Assembly: GCA_049322915.1 (NCBI GenBank)
Contig: JBMOPW010000020.1
Span: 160,001-224,000 of the forward strand
DNA length: 64,000 nucleotides
From: Candidatus Zhuqueibacterota bacterium
GTDB lineage: Bacteria; Zhuqueibacterota; Zhuqueibacteria; Thermofontimicrobiales; Thermofontimicrobiaceae
Reading direction: 5' to 3'
Shown here in pieces: positions 26,355 to 42,601 of the stretch (positions are counted from its first letter, which is position 1; the number at the start of each line of letters is the position of its first letter). The translations under genes and the position numbers were made by a program. The notes under the pieces were generated by a model. That model saw only the letters and a list, made by a program, of their open reading frames with translations, was not told where the DNA came from and did not search any database.

Positions 26355-26424
26355 ACATCACCTCTTTGTTATTAGATTAAGAAAATTAGTTATCAATTTA
26401 CGGGATAAACATAAAAAGTTTCAA

Positions 26425-26453
26425 AAGATATGAAATCCCCCGGGAAAAGTCAA
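26425..26453 (-). promoter_or_regulatory. Putative sigma-70 promoter for the S46 peptidase
   Basis: Minus strand TTGACT-N17-TATCTT. Confidence 0.5.
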
Positions 26454-26555
26454 GTGAATTTATGGAGGAGAGCAATGCCGGAAGTTGCCCGATCGTTAAC
26501 GCCGCAACCGGAATGAGCGACGTTTATTTCTGTATCGTGTTGGGAATTGAATCTG

Positions 26556-27227
26556 CTACTTTGATTTTTTATGAATCATACCATCGACCAGGTGAATGGT
26601 GCGGTGGCCGTATGCTGCCCACTTTTCGTTATGCGTCACCTGAACGATCGTGGCGCCCTGTTCGTTCAGCTTTTTCAACATGTCCATTATCTCTTTGCCC
26701 TGGGCTGAATTCAAATTGCCGGTTGGCTCGTCCGCCAGTATCACTTTCGGATCTGTGATGATGGCGCGGGCGATACCGACAATCTGTTGCTGCCCGCCGG
26801 AGAGTTGATTGGGGAATAAATCCTTTTTGGCGACAATCTGAAATCGGTCGAGCGCGTCTGCCACCAGTGCTTTTCGTTCTGAAGCCGGCACCTTTTTATA
26901 GAGCAAGGGCGTTTCCAGATTTTCGTACACAGTCAAATCATCGATCAAATGGTATGCCTGAAAAATGAAACCGATGTTCTGCTGGAACAGTTGTGTCCGT
27001 TCACGTTCCTTGAGTTGAAAAACAGATTGATCCCCGAAAAAATATTCGCCGTCCGATGGTTCGTCCAGCATGCCGATGATATGCATCAGAGTGGATTTAC
27101 CGGCGCCCGATGGGCCCATGATGGTGATGAATTCGCCAGGATTAATTTCCATCGAGATATCCTGAAGCACATACGTTTTCACAAATCGGTTGGAGTAGTA
27201 TTTGAAAATATCATGCAGTCTAATCAT
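26556..27227 (-). CDS. ABC transporter ATP-binding protein (LolD/MacB-type)
   Basis: [26 protein letters not shown] and VTH; GAAAGGA RBS before ATG 27227. Confidence 0.95.
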
Positions 27228-27573
27228 GGACATTCCTTTCAATGGTAATGTAAGCATTATTTTTAGTTGAAATGGATTCGGATCGCAACGGCAGTTGACG
27301 GAATGGTCGAAGTACCGAAAGCAACGGCAACGAAATCCGGCTTTTCAATGATGAGATTTCTCTCTGCTGAATTCCGTTGGGCAGTAAGTCCCCGTTCGGA
27401 GTCGGATGCCGTAAAGCTTGTTTCTTTCCCAGTGATGCAGCTTGTCTATTTTTACATGCGCAGCGACCTTCTGCTCTGGAGCAACGATTCAATCGGATAA
27501 AAGGTCTTGGAATTTCCAAACTGCAATAATTCATATCTCAAACTCTTCATCCGCCAAAGGACAGATTTCATCA

Positions 27574-29919
27574 CTACTCACAACGCAGTGATTCCACTGG
27601 ATTCGCCAGCGCCGCTTTAATCGACTGATAGCTCACTGTTAAAAATGCGATCATTAATGCCAGCAATGCTGCTAAAACAAACATCCACCAATTGATTGCA
27701 ATTCGATACGCAAAATCATGGAGCCATTGATTCATAAAATAATAAGCCACTGGCCAGGCGATGAGATTGGCGATCAACACCCATTTGGCGAATTCTCTGG
27801 ACAGCAAAACCACAATTCCTGCGATGGATGCGCCCAGCACCTTCCTTACTCCAATCTCTTTGGTGCGTTGTTCCGCCATGAATGACGCCAGACCGAATAG
27901 TCCAAGACATGAGAGAAAGATCGCCAGCAGGGCAAAGGTACGGACGATGTTGGTGGTTCGGTCGATCCAATGGTACATTTGATCGTACGCCTCGTCCAGA
28001 AAATGGTATTCAAACGGATAATTCGGATTAAATTTAGTGACCACGTCTTTGATAAAAGTAATCGTCTGCGGAACGTCTGGCGCATTAATTTTCAGGTACA
28101 CGTAGCGATAAGGGCGAATGTCTGGATTATTGAAAATCATGATCGGCCCGATCTCTCCCTCGTGAACAGGCTTGAAATGAAAATCTTTGACGATCCCGAT
28201 AATTTCAAGCGAAATATCACCACGATAGATTCGATTGCCCGCTGCGGTTTCCACATTCATCATCTGAGCCAAACGCTCGTTAATGACGACGACCGCCTGA
28301 TTTTTTGATTCCTCAGTAAAAAAGCGACCGTTTGCCATGTCGATCTGGAAGGTCTTCAGAAAATCGGCATCGACCTGAAAATAGGTGATCAGTGGATTTA
28401 CGTTGGGATCTTTTTCCTGCCATTGCCAGTCCTGACCGTTCCAATAAATTCCTGTAATCGCATCCGAAGCAAGCGAAATACTCTGGATCGCTGGATTTTT
28501 TAATAATTCATTTTTCACCGTTTCATTATTTTCTCCCAGATTTCCTTCGACAGGGAGGGACAGGATTTGTTCTTTGTTCAATCCCAGGTTTTTATTGCGC
28601 ATAAAATGGACTTGATTGTAAACCACCGTCGTGGCTATGATGAGGATGATCGACAGCGTAAACTGCGTGACGACCAGTATCTTTCTGAATGAACTACCTT
28701 TCGAACTCGAAAATCGTAAACCTGTGAAAATCTGGACAGGTTGAAACGATGAAAGGAACAGCGCTGGATAGCTTCCTGATATGATTCCTGTGACAATGGC
28801 AATCCCCATGATTCCCATTAAAGCGGAGAGATTTTTCAAATAATGCAGCTCTAATGGTCGTTGCGTCATTTGTCGAAAAACAGGCAAGAAAAGCTCAACC
28901 AAAAAGATGGCAAGCGCCAGTGAAATAATAGTCAGCAAAATCGATTCGCCAAAGAATTGCCGCACCAGATGTTTTCGCTGGGCGCCGACGACCTTGCGCA
29001 AGCCCACTTCCTTTATTCGTCTGGCTGAGCGTGCCGTGGTGAGATTCATGAAATTGATGCAGGCGATAACCAGAACAAACAGGGCAATCACCCCGAAAAT
29101 TTTGACCTGATCCAGCCGTCCCCATAGCTTCAAATAAATATCTTTGAACGGGTAGAGGAACGGTTCCAATATGGTATTGGGATCGGATTGACGAATGCGA
29201 TTGGCGATTTTTTGGTTGAATTCCTGGTATGAGACATTTTCCGCCAGTTGAACGTACGTGCGAAACGCCAGGTTGTACCAGGTATCGAGATAATTGGGTC
29301 GATATATTTCCCTGGTAAAATCAATTGGTATCCAGATCGCAAAATCTATGGTTGAATTATACGGAATATCTTCAATCACACCAACCACCTTAAACTCATA
29401 CCGATTCTCCAATGTAACGATCTTGCCGATGGGATTCTCATTGCCAAAATATTTCTGCGCCGTCTTTTCGGCCATGACCAAAACATGCGGATCTGAGAAG
29501 GCGTCCTTTGAATTTCCTTTCACAAAAGGAATAGTAAAAATCTCAAAAACCGTCGGCTCAGCCAATTGGACTTCATCCTTGAATTTTTTATTTTCGTATT
29601 GAATGAGAAATTCATGCAGTCCATTATTGATTAACGCTGAATTGACTACTTCGGGGAATTCGGTTTTCAGTGTTCGTCCCAGAATGGGCGGTGTGCCCTG
29701 GCCTGGCATCCTTTCAGCTCCATATTGCTCCCAGCAGCGCATCAGGTAAATCGAATCGAGGTTTTTGTGCATCGAATTGAAGCTCAATTCATATTGAATC
29801 CATAGCATGATCAGAATGCAGCACGCCATGCCGATTGCAAGACCCAGAATGTTGATGAAAGAATAAGCTTTGTGGCGTCGGATGTTTCGCAAAGCGATTT
29901 TTAAGTAGTTTTTAAACAT
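27574..29919 (-). CDS. MacB/FtsX-type ABC permease, array member A
   Basis: MFKNYLKIALRN...INFMNL..AR...EVGLRKVVGA...EIGVRKVLGAS...ANPVESLRCE. Confidence 0.95.
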   Translation of the reverse strand: MFKNYLKIALRNIRRHKAYSFINILGLAIGMACCILIMLWIQYELSFNSMHKNLDSIYLMRCWEQYGAERMPGQGTPPILGRTLKTEFPEVVNSALINNGLHEFLIQYENKKFKDEVQLAEPTVFEIFTIPFVKGNSKDAFSDPHVLVMAEKTAQKYFGNENPIGKIVTLENRYEFKVVGVIEDIPYNSTIDFAIWIPIDFTREIYRPNYLDTWYNLAFRTYVQLAENVSYQEFNQKIANRIRQSDPNTILEPFLYPFKDIYLKLWGRLDQVKIFGVIALFVLVIACINFMNLTTARSARRIKEVGLRKVVGAQRKHLVRQFFGESILLTIISLALAIFLVELFLPVFRQMTQRPLELHYLKNLSALMGIMGIAIVTGIISGSYPALFLSSFQPVQIFTGLRFSSSKGSSFRKILVVTQFTLSIILIIATTVVYNQVHFMRNKNLGLNKEQILSLPVEGNLGENNETVKNELLKNPAIQSISLASDAITGIYWNGQDWQWQEKDPNVNPLITYFQVDADFLKTFQIDMANGRFFTEESKNQAVVVINERLAQMMNVETAAGNRIYRGDISLEIIGIVKDFHFKPVHEGEIGPIMIFNNPDIRPYRYVYLKINAPDVPQTITFIKDVVTKFNPNYPFEYHFLDEAYDQMYHWIDRTTNIVRTFALLAIFLSCLGLFGLASFMAEQRTKEIGVRKVLGASIAGIVVLLSREFAKWVLIANLIAWPVAYYFMNQWLHDFAYRIAINWWMFVLAALLALMIAFLTVSYQSIKAALANPVESLRCE

Positions 29920-29939
29920 TTCATTTTCTCCATTTTCCT

Positions 29940-29991
29940 GCAGAGCGCATAGCCTAAATTTACGCTATGCGCTCTGCGCCATGCTCTATGC
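29940..29991. repeat. Junction heptamer hairpin between permeases B and A
   Basis: gcagagc-gcatagc / gctatgc-gctctgc-gccatgc-tctatgc; perfect 14-bp stem. Confidence 0.85.
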
Positions 29992-29995
29992 ATTT

Positions 29996-32389
29996 TTACT
30001 CATACCGCAGCGATTCCACTGGATTCGCCAATGTAACTTTCAATGTTTGTGATGTAACAGCAACCAGCGCTGTACCGAACGAAATGAAAATCACAAATAG
30101 ATATGTCCCGACGCCAATCCCTTGCATGTACAACAATCCAGTCTGCAATACTTGATTCCATCCAAAATGGATGATTGATAAGCCAATGACGTTGGCAAGG
30201 ACGACCAGCATGATAAATTCCCTGATCATGGTCCAGGTTACACGGATCATGGAAGCGCCAAGCACCTTGCGAATGCAGATTTCTTTTGTCCTCTGTTCTA
30301 CCAGGTAAGATACCAATCCCAGCAATCCCAGGCAGGAGAAAAATACGGCAACGAATCCAATCAAACCGAAAAAACCAGAGATTTTATTCACAAGTCCCAA
30401 AACATCCTGGAAATAATCATCAATGGATGTGCAGTCAAAAGGCAGATCAGGGAAAAAAACCAGCCATTGTTCTTTCAAGAGATGTTCGATGTCCTTGAAA
30501 TCATGGGCAGCAGAGTATTTGACCAGAAGATAATTTAAATCTTCAGGCGCTAAATATAAAGCGGCAGGAGGAATTTCAAAACCAATATCGGCAAAGAGAA
30601 AATCCTTTGCCACCCCGATTACCATGCCAGCCCTGTCCCCAATTATTATCTGTTTGCCAATCGGATCTTCAATATTCAATCTTTTGACAGCACTTTCATT
30701 CAGGATAATGCTGTTAACATCCTTGTTTTCCCTTGAAAAGCTTCTGCCGTTGGTCAGCTTCATCTCAAGGGCTTCGATAAAATTGTAGTCAACGCCGTAA
30801 GCCTCAATTGTTTTGGCGTCTTGCTCATTTTGCTCTGGCAGCCTGGCACGTTTTGGCGATGACCATATTAAAGGGATGTTAGCTGAAGCCGAAACAAGAT
30901 TTATCCCTGCCTGACGGGTAATTTCTGTTTTGAGAGCTTCGAGCCTGGGGCGAGATTCATCGGAAAGCTTCACCACAGCCAATCGCTCTCGATTGTAACC
31001 AAAGTCAGCTTTTAGCAGGTGATCCAGTTGGCCTTTTAATAAGCTTGCAAAGGCAATCAAGATGATCGACAAAGTAAATTGGGTGACGATTAAAATTTTG
31101 CTGCCACGTCTTTTTTTCTTGCCTGTCTGCAAGCTGCCTTTGAGCACTGCCTGGGGTTGAAATTTGGACAAAAAGAATGCTGGATAGGCGCCTGAAAATA
31201 TGCCCACTAAAAATGATGTGCCAACAAGATATTTCAACAGGAACGGATAGTTCCAGATCGAGTTGGAGACCTTCGGCGTGTACATCGTCGCTGAAAGCTT
31301 TCCGACATAAGCCGTGTAAATCGGTTCGATTAATTCATAAAGTATCAGGGCGACGGGTAACGCAATCAGCGATAACAAAACCGATTCGCTAATAAATTGA
31401 ATGATCAACTGCGAGCGTCGAGCGCCGATGACTTTTCGTACACCAACCTCTTGAACCCGCTGCATATATCTGGCAGTTGACAGGTTTATGAAATTAATGC
31501 TGACGATCAGCAGCAGGATGATTCCAATGCCCAAAATGATTACAATACCTGCCCGATTGCTGCTGCTCAGGAAAGAAGTAATATGTTCCGAATCCAGCCG
31601 AAAACTTAGAAAGGGGAAAAGATACATTTTCTTTGGTGATTCAGGCGTGTCTCCCAGGTATTTCTTTATCAGCGACTGGAATTTAGCCTCAAACTGTACC
31701 CGATCAAATTCTTCAGAGAGCAGCACAAAAGTAGCCAGTTGATTTTGTTTCCAGTCATCGGTTAAATGGTATAATGATCGGGCGGTCTCCATCGAGATCA
31801 GAAAATCAAATCTCATGGATGAAGTTCGGGGCACATTCTGAACAACTCCTGTAACAGTAACATCGCTATTTTTTTCAAGCGTCAGCACCTTTCCAATTGG
31901 ATCATGATTGCCGAAATATTTTTCGGCGAAGGCTTTGGTCAAAACAATCGAATTGGGTCTTGCCAGCGCTGTTTGTGGATTCCCCGCAATCATTTCAAAT
32001 GTGAAAAACGACAGAAAATTCGAGTCAACGAACAGGATGTTGCTTTCATAAAAAGCATCGGCTTCCCGCTTGATCGTCATTTTATTCACAGGATAAATTC
32101 TCAAGCCAGCTTCGATTCCAGGAAATTCATTTTGCAACGCATGGAGGAGTGGCATTGGCGTAAAGGCAGTGTGTTCCTCTTTTTTATTTTCCGATTGGAG
32201 CACCTGAACGACGCTGAAAATTCTCGTGGCATTTTTATGGAATTTATCCGCATTCAGTTTTACTCCCGCAGTTAAAGCAAAGATAGCAAATCCTGTCATC
32301 CCGACCGCCATTCCCAAAATGTTGATGAGAGAATAGGCTTTTTGTTTTTTCAGATTTCGTAATGCGACAAGTAAATAATTTTTGAACAT
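29996..32389 (-). CDS. MacB/FtsX-type ABC permease, array member B
   Basis: AAGGAG RBS, MFKNYLLVALRN...ANPVESLRYE; same architecture as member A. Confidence 0.95.
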   Translation of the reverse strand: MFKNYLLVALRNLKKQKAYSLINILGMAVGMTGFAIFALTAGVKLNADKFHKNATRIFSVVQVLQSENKKEEHTAFTPMPLLHALQNEFPGIEAGLRIYPVNKMTIKREADAFYESNILFVDSNFLSFFTFEMIAGNPQTALARPNSIVLTKAFAEKYFGNHDPIGKVLTLEKNSDVTVTGVVQNVPRTSSMRFDFLISMETARSLYHLTDDWKQNQLATFVLLSEEFDRVQFEAKFQSLIKKYLGDTPESPKKMYLFPFLSFRLDSEHITSFLSSSNRAGIVIILGIGIILLLIVSINFINLSTARYMQRVQEVGVRKVIGARRSQLIIQFISESVLLSLIALPVALILYELIEPIYTAYVGKLSATMYTPKVSNSIWNYPFLLKYLVGTSFLVGIFSGAYPAFFLSKFQPQAVLKGSLQTGKKKRRGSKILIVTQFTLSIILIAFASLLKGQLDHLLKADFGYNRERLAVVKLSDESRPRLEALKTEITRQAGINLVSASANIPLIWSSPKRARLPEQNEQDAKTIEAYGVDYNFIEALEMKLTNGRSFSRENKDVNSIILNESAVKRLNIEDPIGKQIIIGDRAGMVIGVAKDFLFADIGFEIPPAALYLAPEDLNYLLVKYSAAHDFKDIEHLLKEQWLVFFPDLPFDCTSIDDYFQDVLGLVNKISGFFGLIGFVAVFFSCLGLLGLVSYLVEQRTKEICIRKVLGASMIRVTWTMIREFIMLVVLANVIGLSIIHFGWNQVLQTGLLYMQGIGVGTYLFVIFISFGTALVAVTSQTLKVTLANPVESLRYE

Positions 32390-32406
32390 GATTTTCTCCT
32401 TCTCGT

Positions 32407-32563
32407 GCATAGCGCAGAGCGTTATACGTGGGACGAGAGACGGCAGACGTGAGACGAAAAAGTTGGCGTCTCACATTTCACGTTTGACGTTTCACGCAAA
32501 TTACGCTATGCGCTTATTCGTATCTCTAACTCTCCATCCGCCAAAGGACGGATTTCATCACTA
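32407..32563. repeat. Junction module between permeases C and B (nested heptamer hairpins + 47-nt terminal duplication)
   Basis: gcatagc-gcagagc-gttata-(cgtgaga-type)x4 ... (cgtttca-type)x4-gctatgc, then TTATTCGTATCTCTAACTCTCCATCCGCCAAAGGACGGATTTCATCACTA. Confidence 0.9.
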
Positions 32564-34987
32564 CTCACATCGCAAGGATTCAACTGGATTTGCCAGCGCT
32601 GCTTTAATCGATTGATAACTCACCGTAATCACTGCAATAATGAGCGCTAAAGTTCCTGCCAATAAAAATGTCCACCAGCTAATATGAATCCGATAAGCGA
32701 AGTTTTGTAACCATCGATTTACGGCAAAATAGGCAATTGGCCAGGCGATTATGTTTGAAATAAGAATCCATTTGACAAAATCTCGATTTAGCCACTGAAT
32801 GATATTTATAACCGAAGCACCAAGTACTTTACGGATGCCTATTTCTTTGGTGCGCTGCTTTGCAATAAATAGAGCCAAACCAAATAATCCAAGGCTGGCA
32901 ATAAACAATCCCATGATGGTAATAATACTTAATAATCGACTCACTTGCTCTTCAAACCGATATTGTCGATCGAAATCTTCATCGAGAAAAATTCCTTCAT
33001 ACGGGATCGATGGATGTAATTCACTCCATTTCGATTCGATGAATTTTAAAGTTTTATTTAAATTTTTAGTATTTAAAGACAATGTGATCACATTGAACAA
33101 AGATGGCTCATATTCCATAAAAAGGGGTTCTACAGTACTTTGCATTCCCTGATAATGAAAATTTTTTGTCACACCGACGATTTCCTTCTGGGTGAAGCCA
33201 CTATATATTTTCTTCCCAATCGCTTCTTCCGGTGAGCTCCAGCCGAGCAGTCCGACGGCAGCTTCATTAATAAGAAAGGCATTTTTCTCGTCATTTTGTT
33301 CTTTCAGGAAGGGGCGCCCAGCAACAAGCTCGATACCATATTCAGGGATAAAATCATGATCTACAGCCATATATTTCAAATCAAAAGGCTTTACCAAAAT
33401 ATCATTGCTAAAGCTTAATGAGTTATGAAGAACAGAACGCCCAGGGACGCTCGAAGATACGGTTGTACCAACAATCGCATGGTATTTATCGAATTCACTT
33501 TTCAACACTGTGTAATGGTCGCATACTTTTTTATTCATCCGAAACGGAATGACAAGTTTCTGCTCTTTGTTAAATCCCAACGATTGACTCTTCATAAAAT
33601 GAAGTTGGTTATAGATTGTGATCGTGCTTATGGTTAATAATATCGAAATCGCAAATTGTCCGATAACAAGTACCTTCAGGAGAAAAGTCCCACGTGAGTT
33701 GGTTACAGTTGATCCTTGAATCATAAGCGATGGTTTGAAGGCAGTCAAAATAAAAGCAGGATAACCGCCAGCAACAATACTGATAAATAATAAAAGACCC
33801 ACCAGCGCGAGAAGTACTGTCGGCTGAAAGAGTCCTCTGTGGGATAATTCAGTGCCAGCCATCTCGTTAAATAGGGGTAATAATATTTCTAACAACAGAA
33901 ATGCGAAAATCAATGCCAGGATGGTGATGATTATGGACTCACCCAAAAACTGCTTGATCAATTGAAATCGTTTGGCGCCGACAACCTTGCGCAAACCAAC
34001 TTCTTTGGTTCGATAAACCGACCGCACATTGGAAAGGTTTATGTAATTCATACAGCCAATTAATAAAATCAAAAATCCTATTACCGAATAAATGTATAGA
34101 TAAAGCTTGTTTCCTGGCGGTTCTATTTCATACCTCAGATTCGAATTGTAATGAATATCGAGTAACGGCTGCAAAAAATAGGTCCGTGTTTGTCCCCATA
34201 GGTCTAACTGTTTTTTGACATACTTGTAGGCAAGTCCACTGATTGACTCTTTGAATTCATTCACATTAGTGTTCGATCTGATCTTAACATACGTATACGC
34301 CGCACTGGAATGCCATTCTCGCAACAGAAAACCCCCTTCGTGTGTTTTCAAGGAGAGAAGTAAATCATATTTAAAATGAGAGTTTGAACGAGAGTTCTCG
34401 ATCACTCCAGTTACTATATAATCACAGACAGCAGGGAACGGCGCATAAAATCCACGAAATTCATAAATTGGATCTTTAATCTGGATTGTTTTACCGATTG
34501 GATTTTCATCTCCAAAATATTTCTTTGCCATATTTGTAGTCATCACGACCGTTCTTGGATTTTCTAATGCTGTTTCCGAATCACCTTGGATAAACGGCAT
34601 TGTAAATATTTTAAATATTTCCTGATCAACGTAGAACATTCGTTCCTCATAAAACGCCTTGTTTTCGTACCTGACAAATCCATCATTTAGTTGTAGGATT
34701 CTGGCTGCATGCTCAACCTGTGGGAAATCACTTTTCAGGACTGTCGCCACAACAGGACTGATTCGAGCAAATTTGAACTCGCCCAACGGAACCTTTCTAT
34801 ATTCGGCAATGCGATAAATTCTCACTGCGTCTTTATTGAATCGATCATACGACGATTCACTGGCGACATAAAGAAATATCACCATGCAGCAGGCGATTCC
34901 TATTGCCAGTCCTGCGATATTGATGGCAGAATATGTTTTATGCTTTTTAATATTTCGAAGAGTGATTTTCAAATAATTCTCTAGCAT
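32561..34987 (-). CDS. MacB/FtsX-type ABC permease, array member C (AT-rich)
   Basis: MLENYLKITLRN...ANPVESLRCE. Confidence 0.95.
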   Translation of the reverse strand: MLENYLKITLRNIKKHKTYSAINIAGLAIGIACCMVIFLYVASESSYDRFNKDAVRIYRIAEYRKVPLGEFKFARISPVVATVLKSDFPQVEHAARILQLNDGFVRYENKAFYEERMFYVDQEIFKIFTMPFIQGDSETALENPRTVVMTTNMAKKYFGDENPIGKTIQIKDPIYEFRGFYAPFPAVCDYIVTGVIENSRSNSHFKYDLLLSLKTHEGGFLLREWHSSAAYTYVKIRSNTNVNEFKESISGLAYKYVKKQLDLWGQTRTYFLQPLLDIHYNSNLRYEIEPPGNKLYLYIYSVIGFLILLIGCMNYINLSNVRSVYRTKEVGLRKVVGAKRFQLIKQFLGESIIITILALIFAFLLLEILLPLFNEMAGTELSHRGLFQPTVLLALVGLLLFISIVAGGYPAFILTAFKPSLMIQGSTVTNSRGTFLLKVLVIGQFAISILLTISTITIYNQLHFMKSQSLGFNKEQKLVIPFRMNKKVCDHYTVLKSEFDKYHAIVGTTVSSSVPGRSVLHNSLSFSNDILVKPFDLKYMAVDHDFIPEYGIELVAGRPFLKEQNDEKNAFLINEAAVGLLGWSSPEEAIGKKIYSGFTQKEIVGVTKNFHYQGMQSTVEPLFMEYEPSLFNVITLSLNTKNLNKTLKFIESKWSELHPSIPYEGIFLDEDFDRQYRFEEQVSRLLSIITIMGLFIASLGLFGLALFIAKQRTKEIGIRKVLGASVINIIQWLNRDFVKWILISNIIAWPIAYFAVNRWLQNFAYRIHISWWTFLLAGTLALIIAVITVSYQSIKAALANPVESLRCE

Positions 34988-35009
34988 GATTCATTTCCTT
35001 TGATTTTCC

Positions 35010-35076
35010 GCTTAGCGCAAAGAGCATGGCGCATCGCATCCTTTTCGCCATGCCCTTTGCTTTATACACCATACGC
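35010..35076. repeat. Junction heptamer hairpin between permeases D and C
   Basis: gcttagc-gcaaaga-gcatggc-gcatcgc / gccatgc-cctttgc-tttatac-accatac. Confidence 0.75.
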
Positions 35077-37476
35077 TTATTCGTATCTCAAACTCTTCAC
35101 TGGATTCGCCAGTGCCGCTTTAATCGAATGATAGCTGACTGTCAACAAAGCAATGAGCAAAGTTGCCGATCCAGCCACCACAAATGTCCACCATTCCAGG
35201 TTGATCCGATACGTGAAATTTTGCAGCCATTGCGTCAGGCAGTAATAGGCAACGGGCCAGGCGATGATGTTGGCAATCAACACCCATCTGGTGAAATTCC
35301 AGGTTAACGATGATACGATACCTGGGACGGATGCGCCGAGCACTTTTCGGATGCCGATCTCTTTGGTTCGCCGCTCGGCGGTAAAAGTGGCTAAACCGAA
35401 TATGCCGAGGCATGCGATAAAAATAGCCAATATGTTTGAATACATCAGAATCTGTCCCAGCTTCTGTTCCGATTGATACATCTGATTGAATTGATCATCG
35501 AGAAAAAAATGCTGAAAAGGATATCGAACCTTGAAGCGATTATACAGGCTCTCTATTTTTGCCAGTGTCTCATGGAAATTGCCTGGGATCATTCGGATCT
35601 GAATCCAATATGAATTGGGTCGGCATCGAATAATGACGGGTTTGATATTGAAATGTAACGGACGGGCATGGAAATCTTTCACCACGCCGATAATATTGTA
35701 TCTGGCATCCTGAGGGCCGCTCCATACCTGGGGTACCTGTTTGCCAATCGGATTGGCCCAGCCTATTTGTTTCACAAAGGTTTCATTCACGATCAGGGCT
35801 GTAGCTGAATCGCTACCAAACGCTTTTGAAAAATTCCGACCCTGCACCATACGCATCTTAAACAGATCGATGAAATTATAATCGACTTCGAGAAGCTGGT
35901 AATGCACCAGTTTATTTTCCCCATTGTCTTTTTGGAATTCGATCCCAGTTGCCCAATTAATGTTAGTGGGTAGCTCGCTTGAAGTCGTGACATCGACGAC
36001 TTTGGGAATTTGCAGCAGATCATTTTTGAATGCTTCAAAATTATTGGTGATTTCCGAATCCGCCTGTCGCAGCACTAAAATCTGTTCCCTCCTGAATCCC
36101 AGGTCTTTGTGTTTGATATAACCAATCTGCCGGTATATTACGAGTGAAGCAATCATCAAAACGATTGCGATGCTGAATTGGAACAAAACCAGAAAATTCC
36201 TGAGATTCATGCCTTTTTTTTGATCCGTATTTTTTGACCTTAAAATTATCACGGGCTTCATCGAAGACAGAACGATTGAAGGATAAATACCAGAGATCAG
36301 ACCCGTGGCGATGACAACGGCAATTAATCCGAGAATCTCAGTTTTATTTAGAAAGAAACTCCAGTCAATCGTTCGCTGAATGAATTGATTGAACACTGGC
36401 AGCAGCATGGTTACCAGCGTAATTGCAGCAACAAATGCCAGTACTGACATGAATAGCGATTCTCCTGTAAACTGCCCGAACAATTGGTGACGCATTGAGC
36501 CGACCACTTTTCGAACCCCGATTTCTTTGGCTCGCTTCGAGGCATTTGCTGTCGACAAATTCACGGCATTGATGCAGGCGATCAATAGGACAAATATGGC
36601 AACGACGGTGAATAGTCGAATCAAATAGATGTCCGTGGGCGCGCCGAGTTCATAGCGATAGCCTGATGTGAGATGAACCTGGTGCAGCGGCTGCAGAAAA
36701 TAGTTGAAATTCAATCGGAATTCCCAATCACCATATTTTGTTTTGGTAAAGTCATTGAGTTTTTTTTCAAACGCCCTGGCATCGCATCCAGGCTGCAATT
36801 TAATGAAGGAGTAGTAATTATCCCAATTCCAGGCATTCAATCGCCTGTCACGATCATCAGGCTGAAACTGACTTTCGAAGGGGAGAATCCAATCAAATTG
36901 AATGTTGGAATTTTCAGGCGCATTCTCGGCAATGCCAGCGACCGTAAAATCACCGAGCGAACATGTCAGCGTTTTTCCTAATGGATCGTCGTTGCCGAAA
37001 AGTTTTTGCACCAGCCGTTGGCTGATAATGATGTTTTGCAGGTTATCCAGAATTTTCTCTTTGTCACCTTTGATCAGCTTGAAAGAAAAAATATTGAAAA
37101 AATTTTTATCAGCCAATACGCCCGCTTCAAAGAAATGCATTTCATCTCGGGACAGCAATAGCTGATTAAAGGAGCTGAATCGGGTGGCAGATTCAACTTC
37201 AGGGAACGCTTCCATCAGCGCCGCAGCCAGTGGCGCAGGTGTAATTGCCAGCATGTCCTCCGTCGTTCCAAATTTTTCACCTGGCAATTGAAAAATAATG
37301 CGAAAAATGCGATTGGAGTGCTGGTGGAAATTATCGTAGCTAAGTTCGTATTGCACGAACAGCATAATGAGCATAAAGCAGGTCATTCCAATCACCAGTC
37401 CTGCAATATTAATGAACGAATATCCCTTATTTCTCTGGATATTTCGAAGGATTAATTTCAGGTAGTTATTGAACAT
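35077..37476 (-). CDS. MacB/FtsX-type ABC permease, array member D
   Basis: MFNNYLKLILRN...ANPVKSLRYE. Confidence 0.95.
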   Translation of the reverse strand: MFNNYLKLILRNIQRNKGYSFINIAGLVIGMTCFMLIMLFVQYELSYDNFHQHSNRIFRIIFQLPGEKFGTTEDMLAITPAPLAAALMEAFPEVESATRFSSFNQLLLSRDEMHFFEAGVLADKNFFNIFSFKLIKGDKEKILDNLQNIIISQRLVQKLFGNDDPLGKTLTCSLGDFTVAGIAENAPENSNIQFDWILPFESQFQPDDRDRRLNAWNWDNYYSFIKLQPGCDARAFEKKLNDFTKTKYGDWEFRLNFNYFLQPLHQVHLTSGYRYELGAPTDIYLIRLFTVVAIFVLLIACINAVNLSTANASKRAKEIGVRKVVGSMRHQLFGQFTGESLFMSVLAFVAAITLVTMLLPVFNQFIQRTIDWSFFLNKTEILGLIAVVIATGLISGIYPSIVLSSMKPVIILRSKNTDQKKGMNLRNFLVLFQFSIAIVLMIASLVIYRQIGYIKHKDLGFRREQILVLRQADSEITNNFEAFKNDLLQIPKVVDVTTSSELPTNINWATGIEFQKDNGENKLVHYQLLEVDYNFIDLFKMRMVQGRNFSKAFGSDSATALIVNETFVKQIGWANPIGKQVPQVWSGPQDARYNIIGVVKDFHARPLHFNIKPVIIRCRPNSYWIQIRMIPGNFHETLAKIESLYNRFKVRYPFQHFFLDDQFNQMYQSEQKLGQILMYSNILAIFIACLGIFGLATFTAERRTKEIGIRKVLGASVPGIVSSLTWNFTRWVLIANIIAWPVAYYCLTQWLQNFTYRINLEWWTFVVAGSATLLIALLTVSYHSIKAALANPVKSLRYE

Positions 37477-37495
37477 TTTTTTTCTCCGCTTTTTT

Positions 37496-37652
37496 GCATA
37501 TCGCAGAGCGTTATACGTGAGACGAAAGACGAAAGAATTTAGCGTCTCGCATCTCTCGTTTGACGTTTCACAAGTTTCACGCTATGCCCTTTGCACCCCA
37601 CGCTATTCGTACCTCCAACTTTCCATCCGCCAAAGGACGGATTTCATCACTA
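37496..37652. repeat. Junction module between permeases E and D
   Basis: Near-copy of 32407-32563. Confidence 0.9.
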
Positions 37653-40013
37653 CTCACAATGCAAGGATTCAACTGGATTTGTCACTGCCGCTTTGATTGC
37701 TTGATAACTCACCGTAAAAATTGAGATCACCAGCACCACCATCGCTGACAGCACAAAAGGCTCCCATCCCAGATTGATTCGATAGGAAAAGCCTTGCAGC
37801 CATTGGCTCGCTGCCCAATACGCCACAGGCCAGGAGATAATGTTGGCAATAAGTACCCACAGGGTAAATTCTCCGGACAGCAGCAGAACGATGCCCGCAA
37901 CCTTTGCGCCCAATACTTTGCGGATGCCGATCTCTTTGGTGCGTCGTCCCGCCATGAACGACGCCAGTCCGAACAGCCCCAGGCAAGCGATGAAGATAGC
38001 CAGCCCTGAGAAATAGCCAAAAATTTTTCCGATCTTACGTTCGGTCGTGTATAAATTTTCAATTGATTCGTCAAGGAATTGGTATCGAAATGGATGTCCG
38101 GGAACGAACTTTTTCCACTTTTGCTCTAAATAACTGACGATCCCTTGTTCGCTGCCACTGTATTTAACGCAGACGAAGAAACCGTTGCGCAAGCTAATAA
38201 CTTTTGGCTGGATGAAATTCCGCAGCGAGCCGCCATGATAGTCCTTCACCACACCGATGATCGTGCCCGTTTTCCCATTGATCGTCAGGCGCTTGCCGAT
38301 CGGCTCATTCAAATCCATTCTTTTGATGGCCGATTCATTCAGAACAAAATTGGCGTCATCGCTGATGAACTCCCGTGAATAAAATCGACCTGCTGCCATT
38401 TTTAAACCAAAGGTTTTTAAAAAATCATAGTCGCCCAAATCGGAAAAAAGCATGATTTCTCTGGTCGGATCTTTGCCTTCCCACTGGACTTGTGTCGTTC
38501 CGCCAAAACCAGGCCCAGGTGGAAATGCCTGGCTCACGCTGAGAATATTTGGATTTTGGAGCAACTCATTTTTGGCGGCTTCGAAATTCATGCCGTATTG
38601 ACCATACGAGGCAAATGAAATGATATTATTCTGGTCAAAGCCCAAATCTTTATTCTGAATAAAATGAAGCTGCCAATAAATAACCGCAGTCAGGATGATC
38701 AGTGTGATGGTGATCGAGAACTGGCTGACCACGAGCACCTTCCGCAGGGCGCCGCCTTTGCCAGCGCTGAATTGAGCCATGGCTCTAAAAACGCCCGCAG
38801 GCTGAAATGATGATAAATAGAGAGCAGGGTAACTGCCTGAAACAATACCTGTTAATATGACAATCCCTAACAAGACGAACAATGAACTCAAATTTTTCGT
38901 CGGGTCGAGCGAAAGCTGCTTGCTGGCAAGCGAGTTAAAAGTCGGCAGTAGAATTTCCACAAGAATGATGCTTACAAATAGCGCTAAAAATGATAACAGT
39001 AAGGTTTCACCCAGAAACTGGATGATGATATCCCGCCGCTGGGCGCCAGTCACTTTGCGGATGCCGATTTCTTTCGCTCGTGCGCCGGAGCGGGCGGTCG
39101 AAAGGTTGGTGAAATTGATGCAGGCTAATGCCAGGATCAAGATGGCGACGATAGAAAAAATGTAAATATACGTGATATTACCTGGATTGGGGTAGACAAT
39201 GTTCCAGCTATTCAGGTGCATCGAATGTAAATGAACTGATTTTAACGGCTGGAGGTCGAGGGTGATTTTGGAATCGGGAATATTTTTGATGACCATGCCC
39301 GCCATTTTTTGTTTGAGATCATTCAGATCGATATTTTTTTTGGTCAGGATATAGGTCGTAAACTGAGTGTATGTCCAGCTATCCAGCTTGGATTCCCGCC
39401 ATTCGGTCATGTTGATGACAGGGAAGATGTAGTCGAACTGGAGATGGGAATTGTGCGGAATATCTTTCATGACTCCTGTGACCTTCAAATCCGTATCCGA
39501 CATCTGAACGATTTTCCCCATTGGCTCGTCATCGCCAAATATTTTTTTCGCTAACCTTTCGGTGAGCACAATTGAATAGCGATCGTGTAAAGCCGTTTTG
39601 GGATCGCCTTTGAGAAATGGAAATTGAAATATTTCAAAGAAAGAAGGATCGGCGCAGGCCAGCTTTTCGGTTATAAAAATTTTGTCGCCCAGATGAAGAT
39701 ACCAGTTCGACCAGCCTGATTGGACTCGAGTGAAATTTTCAACTTCGGGATATTCTTCAACCAGTGTAGGACCAATGAGTGAAGGTGATCCAACCGAGCG
39801 AATTAAATTGCCGCCCGACCTGTCTTCGGAAATGACCCGAAAAATGTGATCGTTATTTTTGTGGAATCGATCCCAACTCAATTCATCTTGCACCCACAGC
39901 AGGATGAGCGTACAGACGGCCATGCCAATAGCCAGTCCGATGACATTCAAGAACGAATAGCCTTTATAGCGTTTGATGTTTCGCAGTGCAATTGTCAAAT
40001 AATTTTTGAACAT
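37650..40013 (-). CDS. MacB/FtsX-type ABC permease, array member E
   Basis: AAGGAG RBS, MFKNYLTIALRN...TNPVESLHCE. Confidence 0.95.
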   Translation of the reverse strand: MFKNYLTIALRNIKRYKGYSFLNVIGLAIGMAVCTLILLWVQDELSWDRFHKNNDHIFRVISEDRSGGNLIRSVGSPSLIGPTLVEEYPEVENFTRVQSGWSNWYLHLGDKIFITEKLACADPSFFEIFQFPFLKGDPKTALHDRYSIVLTERLAKKIFGDDEPMGKIVQMSDTDLKVTGVMKDIPHNSHLQFDYIFPVINMTEWRESKLDSWTYTQFTTYILTKKNIDLNDLKQKMAGMVIKNIPDSKITLDLQPLKSVHLHSMHLNSWNIVYPNPGNITYIYIFSIVAILILALACINFTNLSTARSGARAKEIGIRKVTGAQRRDIIIQFLGETLLLSFLALFVSIILVEILLPTFNSLASKQLSLDPTKNLSSLFVLLGIVILTGIVSGSYPALYLSSFQPAGVFRAMAQFSAGKGGALRKVLVVSQFSITITLIILTAVIYWQLHFIQNKDLGFDQNNIISFASYGQYGMNFEAAKNELLQNPNILSVSQAFPPGPGFGGTTQVQWEGKDPTREIMLFSDLGDYDFLKTFGLKMAAGRFYSREFISDDANFVLNESAIKRMDLNEPIGKRLTINGKTGTIIGVVKDYHGGSLRNFIQPKVISLRNGFFVCVKYSGSEQGIVSYLEQKWKKFVPGHPFRYQFLDESIENLYTTERKIGKIFGYFSGLAIFIACLGLFGLASFMAGRRTKEIGIRKVLGAKVAGIVLLLSGEFTLWVLIANIISWPVAYWAASQWLQGFSYRINLGWEPFVLSAMVVLVISIFTVSYQAIKAAVTNPVESLHCE

Positions 40014-40030
40014 GATTTTCTCCTTAGCTT

Positions 40031-40213
40031 GCGTGGGGGAACGCATGGCGCAGAGCGTTATACGTGAGACGTGAGACGAAAGACGCGAGACGAAAGAATT
40101 TAGCGTCGCACATCTCTCCTTTGACGTTTAACAAGATTCACGCAATGCCCTTTGCACCCCCCTCTATTCGTACTTCCAACTCTCCATCCGCCAAAGGACG
40201 GATTTCATCACTA
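40031..40213. repeat. Junction module between permeases F and E
   Basis: Near-copy of 32407-32563 and 37496-37652, with five cgtgaga-type units in the left inner arm. Confidence 0.9.
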
Positions 40214-42601
40214 CTCACAACGCAAGGATTCAACTGGATTTGCCAGGGCAGCGCGGATTGTCTGGAAACCGGATGTCGCCAGGGCGAATGCAAGTTCAAA
40301 TGCCACCGCCAGCATGAACAGCCACCAGTTGACCTGAGTTCGATAGGCAAAATGATTCAACCAGTAATGCATGAGGCAGAATGAGAAAGGAATAGCAAGC
40401 GCGCTGGCGCCTAAAATCCAGATGATGAACTGGCGGGAAATGAGAAACGTGATGCCGAATGCGCTTGCGCCCATCACTTTTCGGATGCCGATTTCTTTCG
40501 TACGGTTTTTTGTCACGAACGAGCTGAGACCGTAAAGCCCCAGACAGGAGACGAACAGAGCCAATCCGGTAAAAATGGATAAGAGTTCCCCCGACTTTTC
40601 TTCGACGCGGTAGAGGCGCGAATAGACATCCTCTAAGAAGCGATGATTTAAGGCATACCCGGGCAGGACGCTGGTCCAAACCTCTCTCACGTGCGAAATT
40701 GTCTCCGGTATTTTGTCAGGATTCAGTCTCATTGCAACTACAATGGTCTTCCGGGTATCGATCAAAATGAGCGCGGGATTGATTTTCTTGTGAAACGATT
40801 GAATGTGAAAATCCCGCACAATGCCGATCACACTGACAGCATCGCTCCGGCCCGGAATGTGAAGCAGAGCCCCGACAGGATGAGCCAGTCCCAATGCGCG
40901 CACAGCCGATTCATTCAAAATGACGCTGCCCATAGCATCCGTGGAGATTTCGCGCGAGAAATTCCTTCCCTCAATGAACGCCAGCTTCATGGTTTCGGCA
41001 AATCCAAAGTCAGCGGGCAGCGCTTGCAGATTCACCGAGTTTTCGGCCGGGCTGCCGGCTTTTGTGACGGAGATGTTGAAGCGGCTGTTGATGCCGGGCA
41101 AGGTGTACGCGCTGGAAACACCGAGTACATTCGGATTTTTCAATAACTCGTCGCGAAGCACTGAGTACTTTCCTGCTGCGGCGTCGTCATTGAGCGGGAA
41201 ATTGAGGAGCAGCACATTGTTCTTGTCGAATCCAAGTCCGGCGTTCTTCATATAGTTCAGTTGCTTGTAAATAATCGCCGTCCCCAGGATGAGAGTCAGG
41301 GTCAACGCAAACTGCAGGACGACGATGAATTTTCGAAGATTGAGCTTATGAGTGAGGCCCAGTCGCCGTTTCTTCAGAATGTCCACGGGCCGGAATCTGG
41401 ATAAAAACAGCGCCGGGTACCCGCCGGCAATGAGACTCACTGTGACGATCAGTCCGATGATGAGGATGCTGAATTGCAGCTTGAGCGTCGGTCCCATGTA
41501 AAAATCGGTTCCCACGAAGTCGTAAAATAGTGGCCGCAGTAATTCGAAAATGACAAATCCAACGGCGATGGCGAAGAGCGTAATGAGGAACGATTCGATC
41601 AAAAGCTGATGAATGAGCTGCGGGCGGCTTGCGCCGACGACTTTGCGAATGCCGATTTCCCGGGCGCGGTTCAAATAGCGCGACGTGGATAGGTTGATAA
41701 AATTGAAGCAGGCAATGATGAGAACGAAGAAAGCAGCGGCTAAAAATATTGTCACATACATTTTGTTACCTTTGGGCCCGAGGTCGTAGTTGGAGCGCAT
41801 ATCCCAGTGAATTTCCGAAAGCGGCAGCGGTATGAATTTCATGCGCAAAGCGAACCAGTCATTGGTATTCTCCTTCAGCATGTCCGCCAGCCTGCTCATG
41901 ACCGGCCCAATGGTTGCTCTCTCTTTCAACAGTAAGTAGGTGAAATCATCGCCCCATTGATCCCAGGGCGCAGCACTGACTTTGCCGCTCGCCGCAAATG
42001 TGGCGTAGGAAATGATGAACTGGCAGTTGAGATGGGTGTTGCGCGGGAAATCCCGCATGACGCCGGTGATTTTTAAAGGGGAGTCCTGATAGACTAACGT
42101 GCGGCCAACAGGATTTTCGGCGCCGAAATATTTCCGAGCCTGCGATTCGGTCATGACCAGGGAAAACGGTTCGGAGAGGGCATTTGCCGTATCGCCCTGG
42201 ATGAGATCAAACGTGAAGATGTCGAAAATCCCTGGCTCAGCGAGAAAGACATAGTCCTCGCGGATGGATTCGTCATTCGGCCTCGTGAAAATAGCGTCGT
42301 AATCTCGGCGAATGCGAATGGCGCGTTCGACTTCAGGCGACTGCGTATTCAGAGCCGGGGCGAGTGCGGGCATGGAGCCGGCGAAAATCATTTTGCTCTC
42401 CGGCGTGCCCCACTCCAGCATGATGCGATAGATGCGGCTTTTTTTCTCATGGAAATTCTCAAAGCTGGTCTCGTACATGACGTAGGTCAGCATCACCATG
42501 CAAACAGCCAGCCCAACGGCGAGACCGAGGATATTGATTGCTGAGAATCCCTTGTTCCGGCCGACATTGCGGAACGCGATTTTGATATAGTTCTTTAACA
42601 T
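40211..42601 (-). CDS. MacB/FtsX-type ABC permease, array member F (GC-rich)
   Basis: MLKNYIKIAFRN...ANPVESLRCE. Confidence 0.95.
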   Translation of the reverse strand: MLKNYIKIAFRNVGRNKGFSAINILGLAVGLAVCMVMLTYVMYETSFENFHEKKSRIYRIMLEWGTPESKMIFAGSMPALAPALNTQSPEVERAIRIRRDYDAIFTRPNDESIREDYVFLAEPGIFDIFTFDLIQGDTANALSEPFSLVMTESQARKYFGAENPVGRTLVYQDSPLKITGVMRDFPRNTHLNCQFIISYATFAASGKVSAAPWDQWGDDFTYLLLKERATIGPVMSRLADMLKENTNDWFALRMKFIPLPLSEIHWDMRSNYDLGPKGNKMYVTIFLAAAFFVLIIACFNFINLSTSRYLNRAREIGIRKVVGASRPQLIHQLLIESFLITLFAIAVGFVIFELLRPLFYDFVGTDFYMGPTLKLQFSILIIGLIVTVSLIAGGYPALFLSRFRPVDILKKRRLGLTHKLNLRKFIVVLQFALTLTLILGTAIIYKQLNYMKNAGLGFDKNNVLLLNFPLNDDAAAGKYSVLRDELLKNPNVLGVSSAYTLPGINSRFNISVTKAGSPAENSVNLQALPADFGFAETMKLAFIEGRNFSREISTDAMGSVILNESAVRALGLAHPVGALLHIPGRSDAVSVIGIVRDFHIQSFHKKINPALILIDTRKTIVVAMRLNPDKIPETISHVREVWTSVLPGYALNHRFLEDVYSRLYRVEEKSGELLSIFTGLALFVSCLGLYGLSSFVTKNRTKEIGIRKVMGASAFGITFLISRQFIIWILGASALAIPFSFCLMHYWLNHFAYRTQVNWWLFMLAVAFELAFALATSGFQTIRAALANPVESLRCE

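Follow-up and report, generated by a model that had tools for sequence, protein, structure and literature searches.

There are integrating phages and genomic islands that put a new 3′ terminus on a gene, with the old one remaining downstream, as e14 does in icd of E. coli, and translational bypass inserts are known from T4 gene 60 and, as 'byps', from yeast mitochondria. In the account of Di Nocera et al. (2013, PMC3733652), GTAG-tagged REPs are short palindromes that lie mostly just downstream of reading frames and often supply a TAG stop from their termini; they are described there as thought to be mobilised by RAYT transposases, as probably transcribed into RNA hairpins and as varying in presence between relatives. 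MITEs and the palindromic elements found inside Rickettsia protein genes are, as Delihas describes them (2008, PMC2229807), small, non-autonomous, hairpin-forming inserts that are tolerated by the genes they enter. In insertion with long target duplication, as presented by Furuta et al. (2010, PMC2853133), the inserted DNA lies between two copies of the target, an arrangement that may overlap the 3′ end of a gene and that in their model requires no transposase or integrase.

The window (the whole 64,000-nt stretch of DNA analysed here, from a Candidatus Zhuqueibacterota bacterium) contains an array of six MacB/FtsX (ADOP-like) permease paralogues, A to F, on the minus strand. Four of these six neighbouring transporter genes (A, C, E and F) carry a 47-nt block at the 3′ end, and B and D are without it.

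44061..45311, minus strand: gene for a periplasmic adaptor (HlyD/RND-MFP type), context, opens the apparent operon
42866..43555, minus strand: gene for an ABC ATP-binding protein, context, upstream of the array
40211..42601, minus strand: permease gene F, 796 aa, insert carrier
37650..40046, minus strand: permease gene E, 798 aa, insert carrier
35077..37476, minus strand: permease gene D, 799 aa, without insert
32561..34987, minus strand: permease gene C, 808 aa, insert carrier
29996..32410, minus strand: permease gene B, 804 aa, without insert
27574..29919, minus strand: permease gene A, 781 aa, MacB_PCD plus FtsX twice, insert carrier, the last permease gene of the array
26556..27257, minus strand: gene for a second ABC ATP-binding protein, context, downstream of gene A

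Pfam MacB_PCD and FtsX both exceed their cut-offs in all six array genes. Against TIGR03434 (ADOP family duplicated permease; curated cut-off 622.3 bits) A scores 306 bits and F 291 bits, and by NCBI's threshold the host genes are relatives of that family, not members. The proteins of the four carriers are 28–45% identical to one another and their third codon positions match at 28–37% gene-wide; over the last 12 codons, third positions of C, E and F match at 10–11 of 12.

Read on the coding strand, all four carriers end AAT CCA GTN GAA TCN YTG CRN TGT GAG TAG TGA TGA AATC(C/T)GTCCTTTGGCGGATG, and a second gene end follows 3′ of the block in the +2 frame. The block lies between the NPV codons and the resident E-S-L-R-Y-E-stop. 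It consists of six recoded terminal codons, TAG TGA TGA and then the hairpin core, and contains two small hairpins. Located by their lowest base, the real stops are at 27574 (A), 32561 (C), 37650 (E) and 40211 (F), and the second ends finish 47 nt beyond them, at 27527, 32514, 37603 and 40164.

27548..27594, minus strand: insert copy A, 47 nt, E-S-L-R-C-E, TAG TGA TGA and hairpin-2 core
27570-27592 and 27549-27566: hairpins 1 and 2 of copy A, with 8 pairs in hairpin 1, which closes over the stop region
32535..32581, minus strand: insert copy C, 47 nt, hairpin 1 at 32557-32579 (one internal mismatch), hairpin 2 at 32536-32553
37624..37670, minus strand: insert copy E, 47 nt, hairpin 1 at 37646-37668, hairpin 2 at 37625-37642
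40185..40231, minus strand: insert copy F, 47 nt, hairpin 1 at 40207-40229, hairpin 2 at 40186-40203
27527..27547, minus strand: displaced end of A, AAG AGT TTG AGA TAT GAA TTA, K-S-L-R-Y-E, former stop now TTA
32514..32534, minus strand: displaced end of C, GAG AGT TAG AGA TAC GAA TAA, E-S-stop-R-Y-E-stop
37603..37623, minus strand: displaced end of E, GAA AGT TGG AGG TAC GAA TAG, E-S-W-R-Y-E-stop
40164..40184, minus strand: displaced end of F, GAG AGT TGG AAG TAC GAA TAG, E-S-W-K-Y-E-stop

The original prediction had described 47-nt duplicated ends on these four genes, and both the stop coordinates and the sequences bear it out. Its statement that the second stop falls exactly 47 nt on holds for C, E and F; in A that place is a lost stop (TTA), as its notation had implied. 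The endings of the other two genes also agree with what it had said of them: D ends directly in the relic form, AAG AGT TTG AGA TAC GAA TAA, in the 'resident' codon style, B ends GAA TCG CTG CGG TAT GAG TAA, in the codon style of the insert-borne end, and both keep Tyr. Likewise the claim that the core is near-invariant while the relic decays is matched by pairwise identities of 43–46/47 nt among the four inserts and 14–19/21 among the relics, with 22–38/48 in the 48 nt upstream of the insert and, ungapped, 5–35/40 in the 40 nt past the relic, where E and F are alike too (35/40). The window has 4 matches to the 18-nt core where 0.14 would be expected, none of 100 shuffles reached 4, and the whole 6.25-Mb genome holds the same 4 occurrences, all inside the array.

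Compared with the systems above, the cassette resembles integrating phages and islands in that the incoming DNA gives the gene a new end and the old end is displaced and decays. It differs in having no integrase, cargo or att core and a unit of only ~50 nt: in all modules read, from this and other genomes, the two ends are spaced by 26–33 nt, with no integrase or cargo remnant between them, and the neighbours of the array are transporter parts. With bypass inserts it shares a ~50-nt insert in the reading frame with a stop codon and a hairpin, but bypass is neither needed nor likely here, and the matched take-off and landing codons and open, conserved landing frame of the gene 60 type were not found. 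Short palindromic units behind reading frames, a supplied TAG stop, probable transcription as RNA hairpins and varying presence are common to the cassette and to REPs or BIMEs as those are described; unlike them, the cassette is confined to one gene family and one codon position, and its six codons and stop replace the gene end. The hundreds of copies and high-copy dispersal of REPs contrast with 4 genomic copies in one array, and hairpin 2 of the window has no GTAG at its stem base, whereas a sub-type in another genome, G166, has GTAG before hairpin 2. MITEs and the Rickettsia elements are, like the cassette, small tolerated inserts that form hairpins and are non-autonomous; by the published description they are read through in frame and add a peptide, whereas the cassette ends translation and re-creates the C-terminus. 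It also shows neither the terminal inverted repeats nor the short target duplication of a MITE: its hairpins are internal and in the same orientation, and its flanks, each an unbroken half of a single codon string, have no short stretch duplicated identically. Long target duplication likewise leaves the inserted DNA between two target copies, at times over a gene's 3′ end, but, as reported, it involves kilobase cargo (restriction-modification genes) and nearly identical repeats of 30–400 bp, whereas the cassette has 26–33 nt of non-coding DNA and gene ends of 21 nt that have only 10 of 21 bases in common (copy F, new versus resident end, hand count), not a near-identical repeat of more than 30 bp; moreover, its first target copy is recoded, and travels and is conserved with the insert, not with the gene. 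Searches of the literature found no description of such a cassette, and the family is apparently undescribed.

The element is not private to this genome, as the same build occurs in many other genomes of the phylum. A double-end pattern gave 30 matches, distributed over 21 of the 125 genomes of the class, and none in the reversed control. With a covariance model built without the second gene end and a module threshold of ~48 bits, 32 of the phylum's 151 genomes reach that score, and 6 of these 32 lie outside the class; plain gene ends score 34–42 bits under this model, and 33 of the best 40 new matches inspected show the module. Throughout, the module opens with a new gene end, the codons of which base-pair with the stretch past the stop; next come a second hairpin similar to the Asn-Pro codons and then the displaced end. 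Stop-to-stop offsets are 44, 47, 49, 51 or 54 nt. A loose pattern at the level of the order gave three extra matches, all coding DNA of other genes. The transporter families themselves are large, and one relative has at least 69 matches to a single family member.

A search of genomes for the core had been proposed with the original prediction and gave, beyond the 4 copies in the genome itself, 9 stretches among public species genomes, of which 1 is real (its sequence is the same as that of G010) and 8 lie in unrelated coding DNA, and 29 stretches among metagenome contigs, none of them real. Since these exact-core scans give a single real match outside, the 47-nt sub-type is rare though the family is wide. 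Between G010 and the window, 2 of 29 non-coding bases differ compared with 6 of 18 coding bases of the new end; the non-coding core is more conserved between genera than the synonymous sites of the adjoining codons.

We scored relic decay as E-x-L-R-Y-E-stop on 33 modules found without using the second end. Eleven score 7/7, two score 6, eight score 5, five score 4 and seven score 3 or less, and the other two frames at the relic position never score above 3. Displaced ends grade from intact to decayed, with decay in two thirds of modules.

The original prediction had named one outcome against itself, that A, C, E and F form one recent clade that simply inherited the motif, with no presence or absence between orthologues. 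This was not what we obtained: the AU test rejects A+C+E+F as a clade (p = 4.9e-55) and the five carriers as one group (p 9.3e-6), at least 4 changes of insert state are needed on the tree of 27 family paralogues, and the tree neighbours of F, C and the G010 carrier are genes of other genomes without the 47 nt. The comparison of alleles with and without the insert, also proposed there, succeeded in part, in that these tree neighbours lack the block; no near-identical allele pair was found in public run contigs, where the only runs other than the source hold just fragments. In the probable source run, contigs are interrupted at the repeated block, and a contig of a second run matches gene C at ~96%, the fit ending exactly at the stop codon of C with 45 letters further in the contig.

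The cassette is discrete and far better conserved than its carrier genes; it sits in paralogues that are not sisters, and many genomes of the phylum have it. Carriers in G078 and G029 encode proteins that are 37% identical, with third positions matching at 30–37%, and 50 of 51 bases of their inserts are equal; identity begins at the GAA codon after NPV, and 4 of the 6 codons just upstream differ synonymously. In genome G166 a single 51-nt sub-type is present 12 times in near-identical form, each time in another of 12 divergent paralogues whose flanks are unconverted. Mean pairwise identity there is 0.91 in the new end and 0.84 in the 30 nt behind the stop, compared with 0.52 in the 87 nt upstream, 0.66 in the resident end and 0.33 downstream. 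Each of the 12 paralogues retains an intact resident end, with codon choices that vary between them, and GTAG stands directly before hairpin 2, where the window has TGAA. From these comparisons the insert appears to travel separately from the gene body. The available homology arms are short (~12 nt and 21–24 nt) and in G166 only 66–84% alike, and the bases directly beside the insert are not co-converted there, so ordinary RecA-type gene conversion fits poorly and a site-specific mechanism is favoured.

On balance, we lean towards reading the 47-nt block as one sub-type of tiny, non-autonomous terminal-replacement cassettes, 44–54 nt from stop to stop, that are specific to ADOP-like MacB/FtsX permease genes and appear to have spread between gene ends. 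The site taken by such a cassette has the Asn-Pro-Val codons on one side and the resident Glu-(Ser/Ala)-Leu-(Arg/Lys)-Tyr-Glu-stop on the other; the cassette brings its own recoded copy of the six codons with a stop, so that the C-terminus of the protein stays normal. In hairpin 1 the new-end codons make up the 5′ arm, and bases that follow or overlap the stop make up the 3′ arm; the second hairpin, with a 5′ arm resembling the Asn-Pro codons, comes next, and the displaced resident end is left untranslated downstream and then decays. From one gene end to another the likeliest route would be ectopic recombination or templated repair in a homing-like process, for which the conserved codons flanking the site would act as short homology arms. 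The hairpins probably work in the mRNA, as 3′ stem-loops of the polycistronic array. Within the window, the C, E and F copies would be older, slightly degenerate and further homogenised among themselves, and the A copy more diverged with hairpin 1 intact. Both readings that the original prediction had offered, a tiny site-specific insertion or a recombination module spread between paralogues, gain support from the non-clade distribution, the presence and absence, the many genomes and the movement of the insert apart from the gene body; its 'att-like scar' of a larger integrating element does not, the unit being only 44–54 nt with nothing that points to an integrase or cargo. A bolder reading, which we regard as less likely than not, would make the cassettes a mobile element of a new kind, self-compensating and site-specific: a ~50-nt unit whose recoded coding end renders insertion harmless and which an enzyme or repair route places at an exact codon boundary.

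Both hairpins covary across the family. Base pairing on 59 modules holds in 78.6% of cells, versus 65.4% in shuffles and 27–48% with slid partners, and the covariation score on these modules, from an alignment itself fitted to the model, is 0.301 versus 0.143, with none of 500 shuffles reaching 0.301. For hairpin 1, a templated origin instead of selection could be the source of the covariation. A structural role is not evident in the window, because hairpin 1 of C, E and F has a mismatch and the folding of these copies is no more stable than that of shuffles (z -0.95 to -1.34); copy A, with hairpin 1 intact, has z -2.71. One hairpin-2 pair is broken in G010, and in some modules (L110, L115, L120) the hairpin-1 arm no longer matches its own gene end. 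The stop codon lies inside or beside the hairpin-1 loop in nearly all modules. An attenuator-like 1-2-3 scheme, in which the second end pairs with the arm that follows the stop, fits L104 (hand pairing) and L087, where the minimum-energy fold makes this pairing, but not the window copies, G078 or L107, and is not general. None of the 24 terminator-like sites in 26300-43800, a chance-level count, lies at a module as an intrinsic terminator (G+C-rich stem plus T run). A search of Rfam 15 with the window copies and 12 loci with other modules matched no family over the modules at E <= 1; Gut-1 RNA (RF01706) scores 27.1 bits on copy A and 13.7 bits on copy F against a gathering threshold of 50 bits, with no match on the 12 other loci, and C/D-box look-alikes score far under threshold. 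The remaining Rfam hits are unrelated (tRNA-Sec elsewhere in L103, weak miRNA models). A mini-ORF (ATG GAG AGT to a stop, or longer from GTG ATG AAA) was rejected, being truncated in copy C; both G010-versus-window changes within hairpin 2 alter its amino acids, and other sub-types have ATT, ATC or GTG there.

Spread by transposition would make the unit a non-autonomous REP/MITE-like element, whose hairpins an enzyme supplied in trans (e.g. a Y1 HUH transposase of the RAYT/IS200 kind) reads as single-stranded DNA and inserts at a fixed codon position. The exact position and unconverted flanks in the 12 G166 paralogues and in G078 versus G029, the short, diverged homology arms and the two small hairpins all suit such a process, and the GTAG before hairpin 2 in G166 recalls GTAG-tagged REPs, whose termini often give a TAG stop as described in PMC3733652. 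Y1_Tnp genes are present in all five genomes checked, but these include G001, which is without the module, so their presence is uninformative. We regard transposition as unlikely, given the very low copy number (4 in the genome, in one array), the lack of any copy seen away from the ends of this permease family or of visible terminal inverted repeats or a fixed target duplication, the untagged hairpin 2 of the window, a hairpin 1 that is coding sequence varying between sub-types, and the recombination-like similarity of E and F past the relic. That the block was merely inherited by recent tandem duplicates forming a single clade, or that it is an assembly artefact, is scarcely credible: the genes are indeed tandem and the source contigs do break at the block, but the AU test rejects the clade and the same build, with compensatory changes, recurs in more than 30 independent assemblies.

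A different account of the conservation is a cis-acting RNA element under selection, either a translation-coupled switch with alternative pairings or a stabilising or processing 3′ structure, for which occurrence in many paralogues would mean function and not mobility. We consider this improbable, although the covariation of both hairpins, the conservation of the non-coding core between genera above adjoining synonymous sites, the position of the stop at the hairpin-1 loop and the L087 fold all point towards it. The second end is decayed in two thirds of modules and in the window copies cannot pair with the arm behind the stop; close relatives of the carrier genes do without the insert and show no visible replacement; there is neither a terminator-like site at the modules nor an Rfam family, and the window copies fold no better than shuffles. 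Function would, in addition, leave the 12 near-identical G166 copies beside divergent flanks unexplained. Programmed recoding, in which ribosomes bypass or shift across the insert and translate the second end, is very improbable. In its favour are the likeness of a ~50-nt insert with a stop codon and hairpin to the gene 60 gap, and the GAG before the stop with GAG or GAA opening the second end in 4 of 5 copies. Against it, the new end already completes the consensus C-terminus and has three stops behind it in frame, the second end of copy C is interrupted by a stop after two codons, copy A opens with AAG at the landing place, the five offsets give no fixed frame, and second ends decay.

Under the terminal-replacement reading, a gene 3′ end would be swapped cheaply and harmlessly, the incoming DNA carrying the codons that are lost while the old end decays. 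Such units would blur the border between repeats, mobile elements and RNA structure, and with the cassettes as natural markers, recombination among the paralogues of large transporter families can be followed. They also set traps, in annotation through false extended or alternative gene ends and spurious ORFs starting in the relic, and in assembly through contigs breaking at the block. If the cassettes are moved by an enzyme, they would represent a very precise small-cargo insertion system; if they are not, they would illustrate clearly how a homing-like spread can proceed with no homing enzyme.

The six permease genes lie in an apparent operon that runs from a periplasmic adaptor and an ABC ATPase, through permeases F, E, D, C, B and A, to a second ATPase:

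44061-45311, minus strand: periplasmic adaptor, start of the apparent operon
42866-43555, minus strand: ABC ATPase, between the adaptor and the permease genes
42601 down to 27574, minus strand: six tandem permease genes (F, E, D, C, B, A)
26556-27257, minus strand: second ATPase, after gene A

All six permeases contain two MacB_PCD + FtsX domain pairs and are similar to the ADOP family, with scores under the family cut-off. Judged by their sequences, A-F are old paralogues (protein identity 28-45%, nucleotide identity 46-54%, third codon positions 28-37%). The genome encodes only one further full-length paralogue, which is on a different contig and has an ordinary end.

In genes A, C, E and F, a 47-nt insert separates the NPV codons from the resident gene end. 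The original prediction described these four ends correctly base for base, and its notation already implied that the second end of gene A lacks a stop (TTA). The insert comprises E-S-L-R/H-C-E codons, TAG TGA TGA and AAATC(C/T)GTCCTTTGGCGGATG; its core occurs four times, against 0.14 expected, and the rest of the 6.25-Mb genome has no further copy. The four copies are identical at 43-46 of 47 positions within the insert, at 14-19 of 21 in the displaced resident end and at 22-38 of 48 immediately upstream. In the last 12 codons of C, E and F, third positions are alike at 10-11 of 12, and E and F also have the 40 nt past the displaced end in common (35/40), so there has been some recombination homogenisation within the array. 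In public contigs, probably of the source run, ends and overlaps fall exactly at window 32540-32557, 37630-37651 and 40191-40207, where the near-identical inserts form a repeated block at which assemblies break. A contig from a different run, roughly 96% similar to gene C, ceases to fit at the stop codon of C and continues for 45 further letters. A 104-codon ORF (27220-27534, minus strand) starts at an ATG within the displaced end of gene A (TAT GAA read as ATG AA.). The product, rich in Cys and Arg, seems spurious, and an annotator could take the ORF for a gene.

To search for the same build elsewhere we used a degenerate pattern of a gene end, 18-50 nt and a second Tyr-Glu-stop. Of 125 genomes in the class, 21 gave matches (30 in total), and the reversed control gave none; this tally, like those from the covariance model and of family expansion below, takes in the unpublished genomes G117 and G121, on neither of which a specific claim rests. 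All real matches follow a common plan. A complete gene end is followed by hairpin 1, in which the stretch past the stop is complementary to the (Glu)-Ala/Ser-Leu-Arg codons and the stop lies in or beside the loop; then by G-A and hairpin 2, formed from a stretch that resembles the Asn-Pro codons, the loop and the complement of that stretch; and then by a second Glu-x-Leu-Arg-Tyr-Glu-stop. The stop-to-stop offset is 44, 47, 49, 51 or 54 nt, and therefore no reading frame is kept. A covariance model was built from 25 such modules cut ahead of the second end, which thus plays no part in selection. Modules score at least 49 bits, above the 34-42 bits of plain gene ends; about 70 listed matches in the class reach 49 bits. 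When the phylum was sampled, 151 genomes yielded 32 with a match at or above about 48 bits; six of the 32 fall outside the class, including one (G138) with a 47-nt insert similar to that of G010, a carrier genome of another genus. The module was present in 33 of the best 40 new hits fetched and absent in 7. These counts rest on the stricter filters of the model and on 40 + 17 fetched regions. No Rfam family matches the modules.

The hairpins were evaluated in 59 modules aligned to the covariance model, a fit that itself favours the structure. Of all cells, 78.6% were paired, whereas shuffles gave 65.4% and slid partners 27-48%, and 86 cells had changed on both sides (39.7 in shuffles). The covariation score of 0.301, versus 0.143, was reached by none of 500 shuffles. 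Several relatives fold clearly better than their shuffles (z -2.0 to -4.5), as does copy A (-2.71); copies C, E and F fold no better (z -0.95 to -1.34). We also scored the stretch past hairpin 2 as E/D-A/S-L-R/K-Y-E/D/K-stop in 33 modules picked without the second end. Eleven scored 7/7, two 6, eight 5, five 4 and seven 3 or less, while the two other frames never exceeded 3. Such a series from intact to unrecognisable is what is expected of displaced coding sequence of differing ages, and on this pattern the second end is best read as a relic. The window relics sit mid-series, with Trp or a stop replacing Leu and one stop lost.

Inheritance of the insert was evaluated on a tree of 27 full-length paralogues, which came from seven genomes within the family, with the last 12 residues left out. 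The original prediction had set its reading against descent of A, C, E and F from one clade. The AU test rejects this clade (p 4.9e-55), as it does a clade of all five carriers (p 9.3e-6), and two carriers have plain-ended tree neighbours. Gene F neighbours two plain-ended genes of the related genomes G006 and G005, and G010_L014, the sole carrier of another genus in the tree, lies beside a plain-ended gene of G001, a genome of the window's genus. At least four changes of insert state are needed, and carriers cluster at the shuffle level (139/500 shuffles as low). The neighbour of gene C, G007_L051 (third gene of G007:C172), ends in insert-style codons and TAG, two bases and the last eight bases of the second end; we infer that it is a deletion derivative, the insert minus its hairpin part. 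In gene B and several G007 and G011 genes the terminal codons are insert-style and nothing follows them, and these ends could be the final state of such a deletion.

Further comparisons separate the insert from the gene body. The 51-nt inserts of G078 and G029 are alike at 50 positions, in carriers whose proteins are 37% identical and whose third positions are saturated; identity starts at the Glu codon after NPV, and four of the six preceding codons differ synonymously. Other pairs show the same behaviour: between G119 and G120a, likeness ends at the stop codon of the second end, and the orthologues of G120 in G122 and G123 (77% identical) have another insert sub-type. In G166, 12 of 17 fetched matches belong to a single 51-nt sub-type, each in a different paralogue. 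Mean pairwise identity is 0.91 in the new end, 0.84 in the 30 nt past its stop, 0.84 in the 12 nt ahead of the insert, 0.52 in the 87 nt upstream, 0.33 downstream and 0.66 in the resident end. None of the 12 resident ends has decayed, and all retain their own Val/Ala/Ile codon and codon choices, and the hairpin-1 arm tracks changes in the new end (TTA with TAA, CTA with TAG). It seems that a single unit spread recently into many gene ends and left their flanks unconverted. A unit of hairpin 2 and gene end is repeated in tandem behind a G077 gene (4.8 copies, period 51, 90% matches; L087 1301-1574), three times behind a G019 gene (L096) and at least twice at L161 of G166, where the second end equals the first exactly. 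One match in G117 appears to be a simple tandem duplicate of the entire Asn-Pro-Val...stop string that lacks hairpin 2, a state that could be a precursor.

The array spacers each contain a long imperfect palindrome:

29920-29995: intergenic spacer
32411-32513: intergenic spacer
34988-35076: intergenic spacer
37477-37602: intergenic spacer
40047-40163: intergenic spacer

The palindrome is built on gcgcagagcgcatagcg / cgctatgcgctctgc and, in the C, E and F spacers, has gtgaaacgtcaaacg / gagacg...cgtctc hairpins nested inside it. Its arms are similar to the Leu-Arg-Tyr codons at the gene end and to the complement of those codons, and the type is also found behind permease genes in G007, G011, G116 and G118. 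Some short spacer motifs recur on contigs C14, C34, C1, C38 and C41. Elsewhere, G120 has at least 69 matches to one family member and three genomes of its genus have 18, 24 and 49 (the last being unpublished G121), many in long tandem arrays, so the permease family has expanded very strongly here. On G120:C280, among many family matches, a permease gene whose match begins at 41292 has a Y1 transposase-like reading frame (40280-40618) ~0.7 kb upstream. One module-bearing permease gene has a tRNA-Sec gene ~180 nt upstream (G120:C181; L103 223-317, plus strand; 68.9 bits, above threshold).

These data allow us to propose how the cassette persists. Because it restores the C-terminus, its insertion would be nearly neutral, and since the two halves of the intact target flank it, templated repair could pass copies to empty paralogues. 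Slippage between the two ends may account for loss, as at G007_L051, and the hairpins may serve the mRNA. Simple gene conversion sits poorly with G166, where the arms are short and diverged and the flanks unconverted, which keeps alive an enzyme-driven, REP-like mechanism. Y1 transposase genes occur in all five genomes tested, including G001, which has no module. Recoding, in which the second end would be translated, is very unlikely given the three in-frame stops, a stop within the relic of C and the varying offsets. The proposal of either a site-specific insertion or a module spread between paralogues is supported.

A literature search found no description of such a unit. In the papers cited here, REPs lie behind genes and may provide a TAG stop (PMC3733652), elements located inside genes include MITEs and Rickettsia palindromic elements (PMC2229807), and in insertion with long target duplication kilobase cargo comes to lie between two near-identical target copies, which may overlap a gene end (PMC2853133). 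As described there, each has one feature in common with the cassette, but none combines its recoded, element-borne gene end with its fixed two-hairpin plan. The cassette is a discrete unit of about 50 nt, tied to this permease family and to a single codon boundary. Its two hairpins covary and its displaced end decays; it is conserved far past its hosts and occurs in non-sister paralogues across the phylum. Together these comparisons place the 47-nt block in a family of terminal-replacement mini-cassettes that extends across the phylum and is apparently undescribed.
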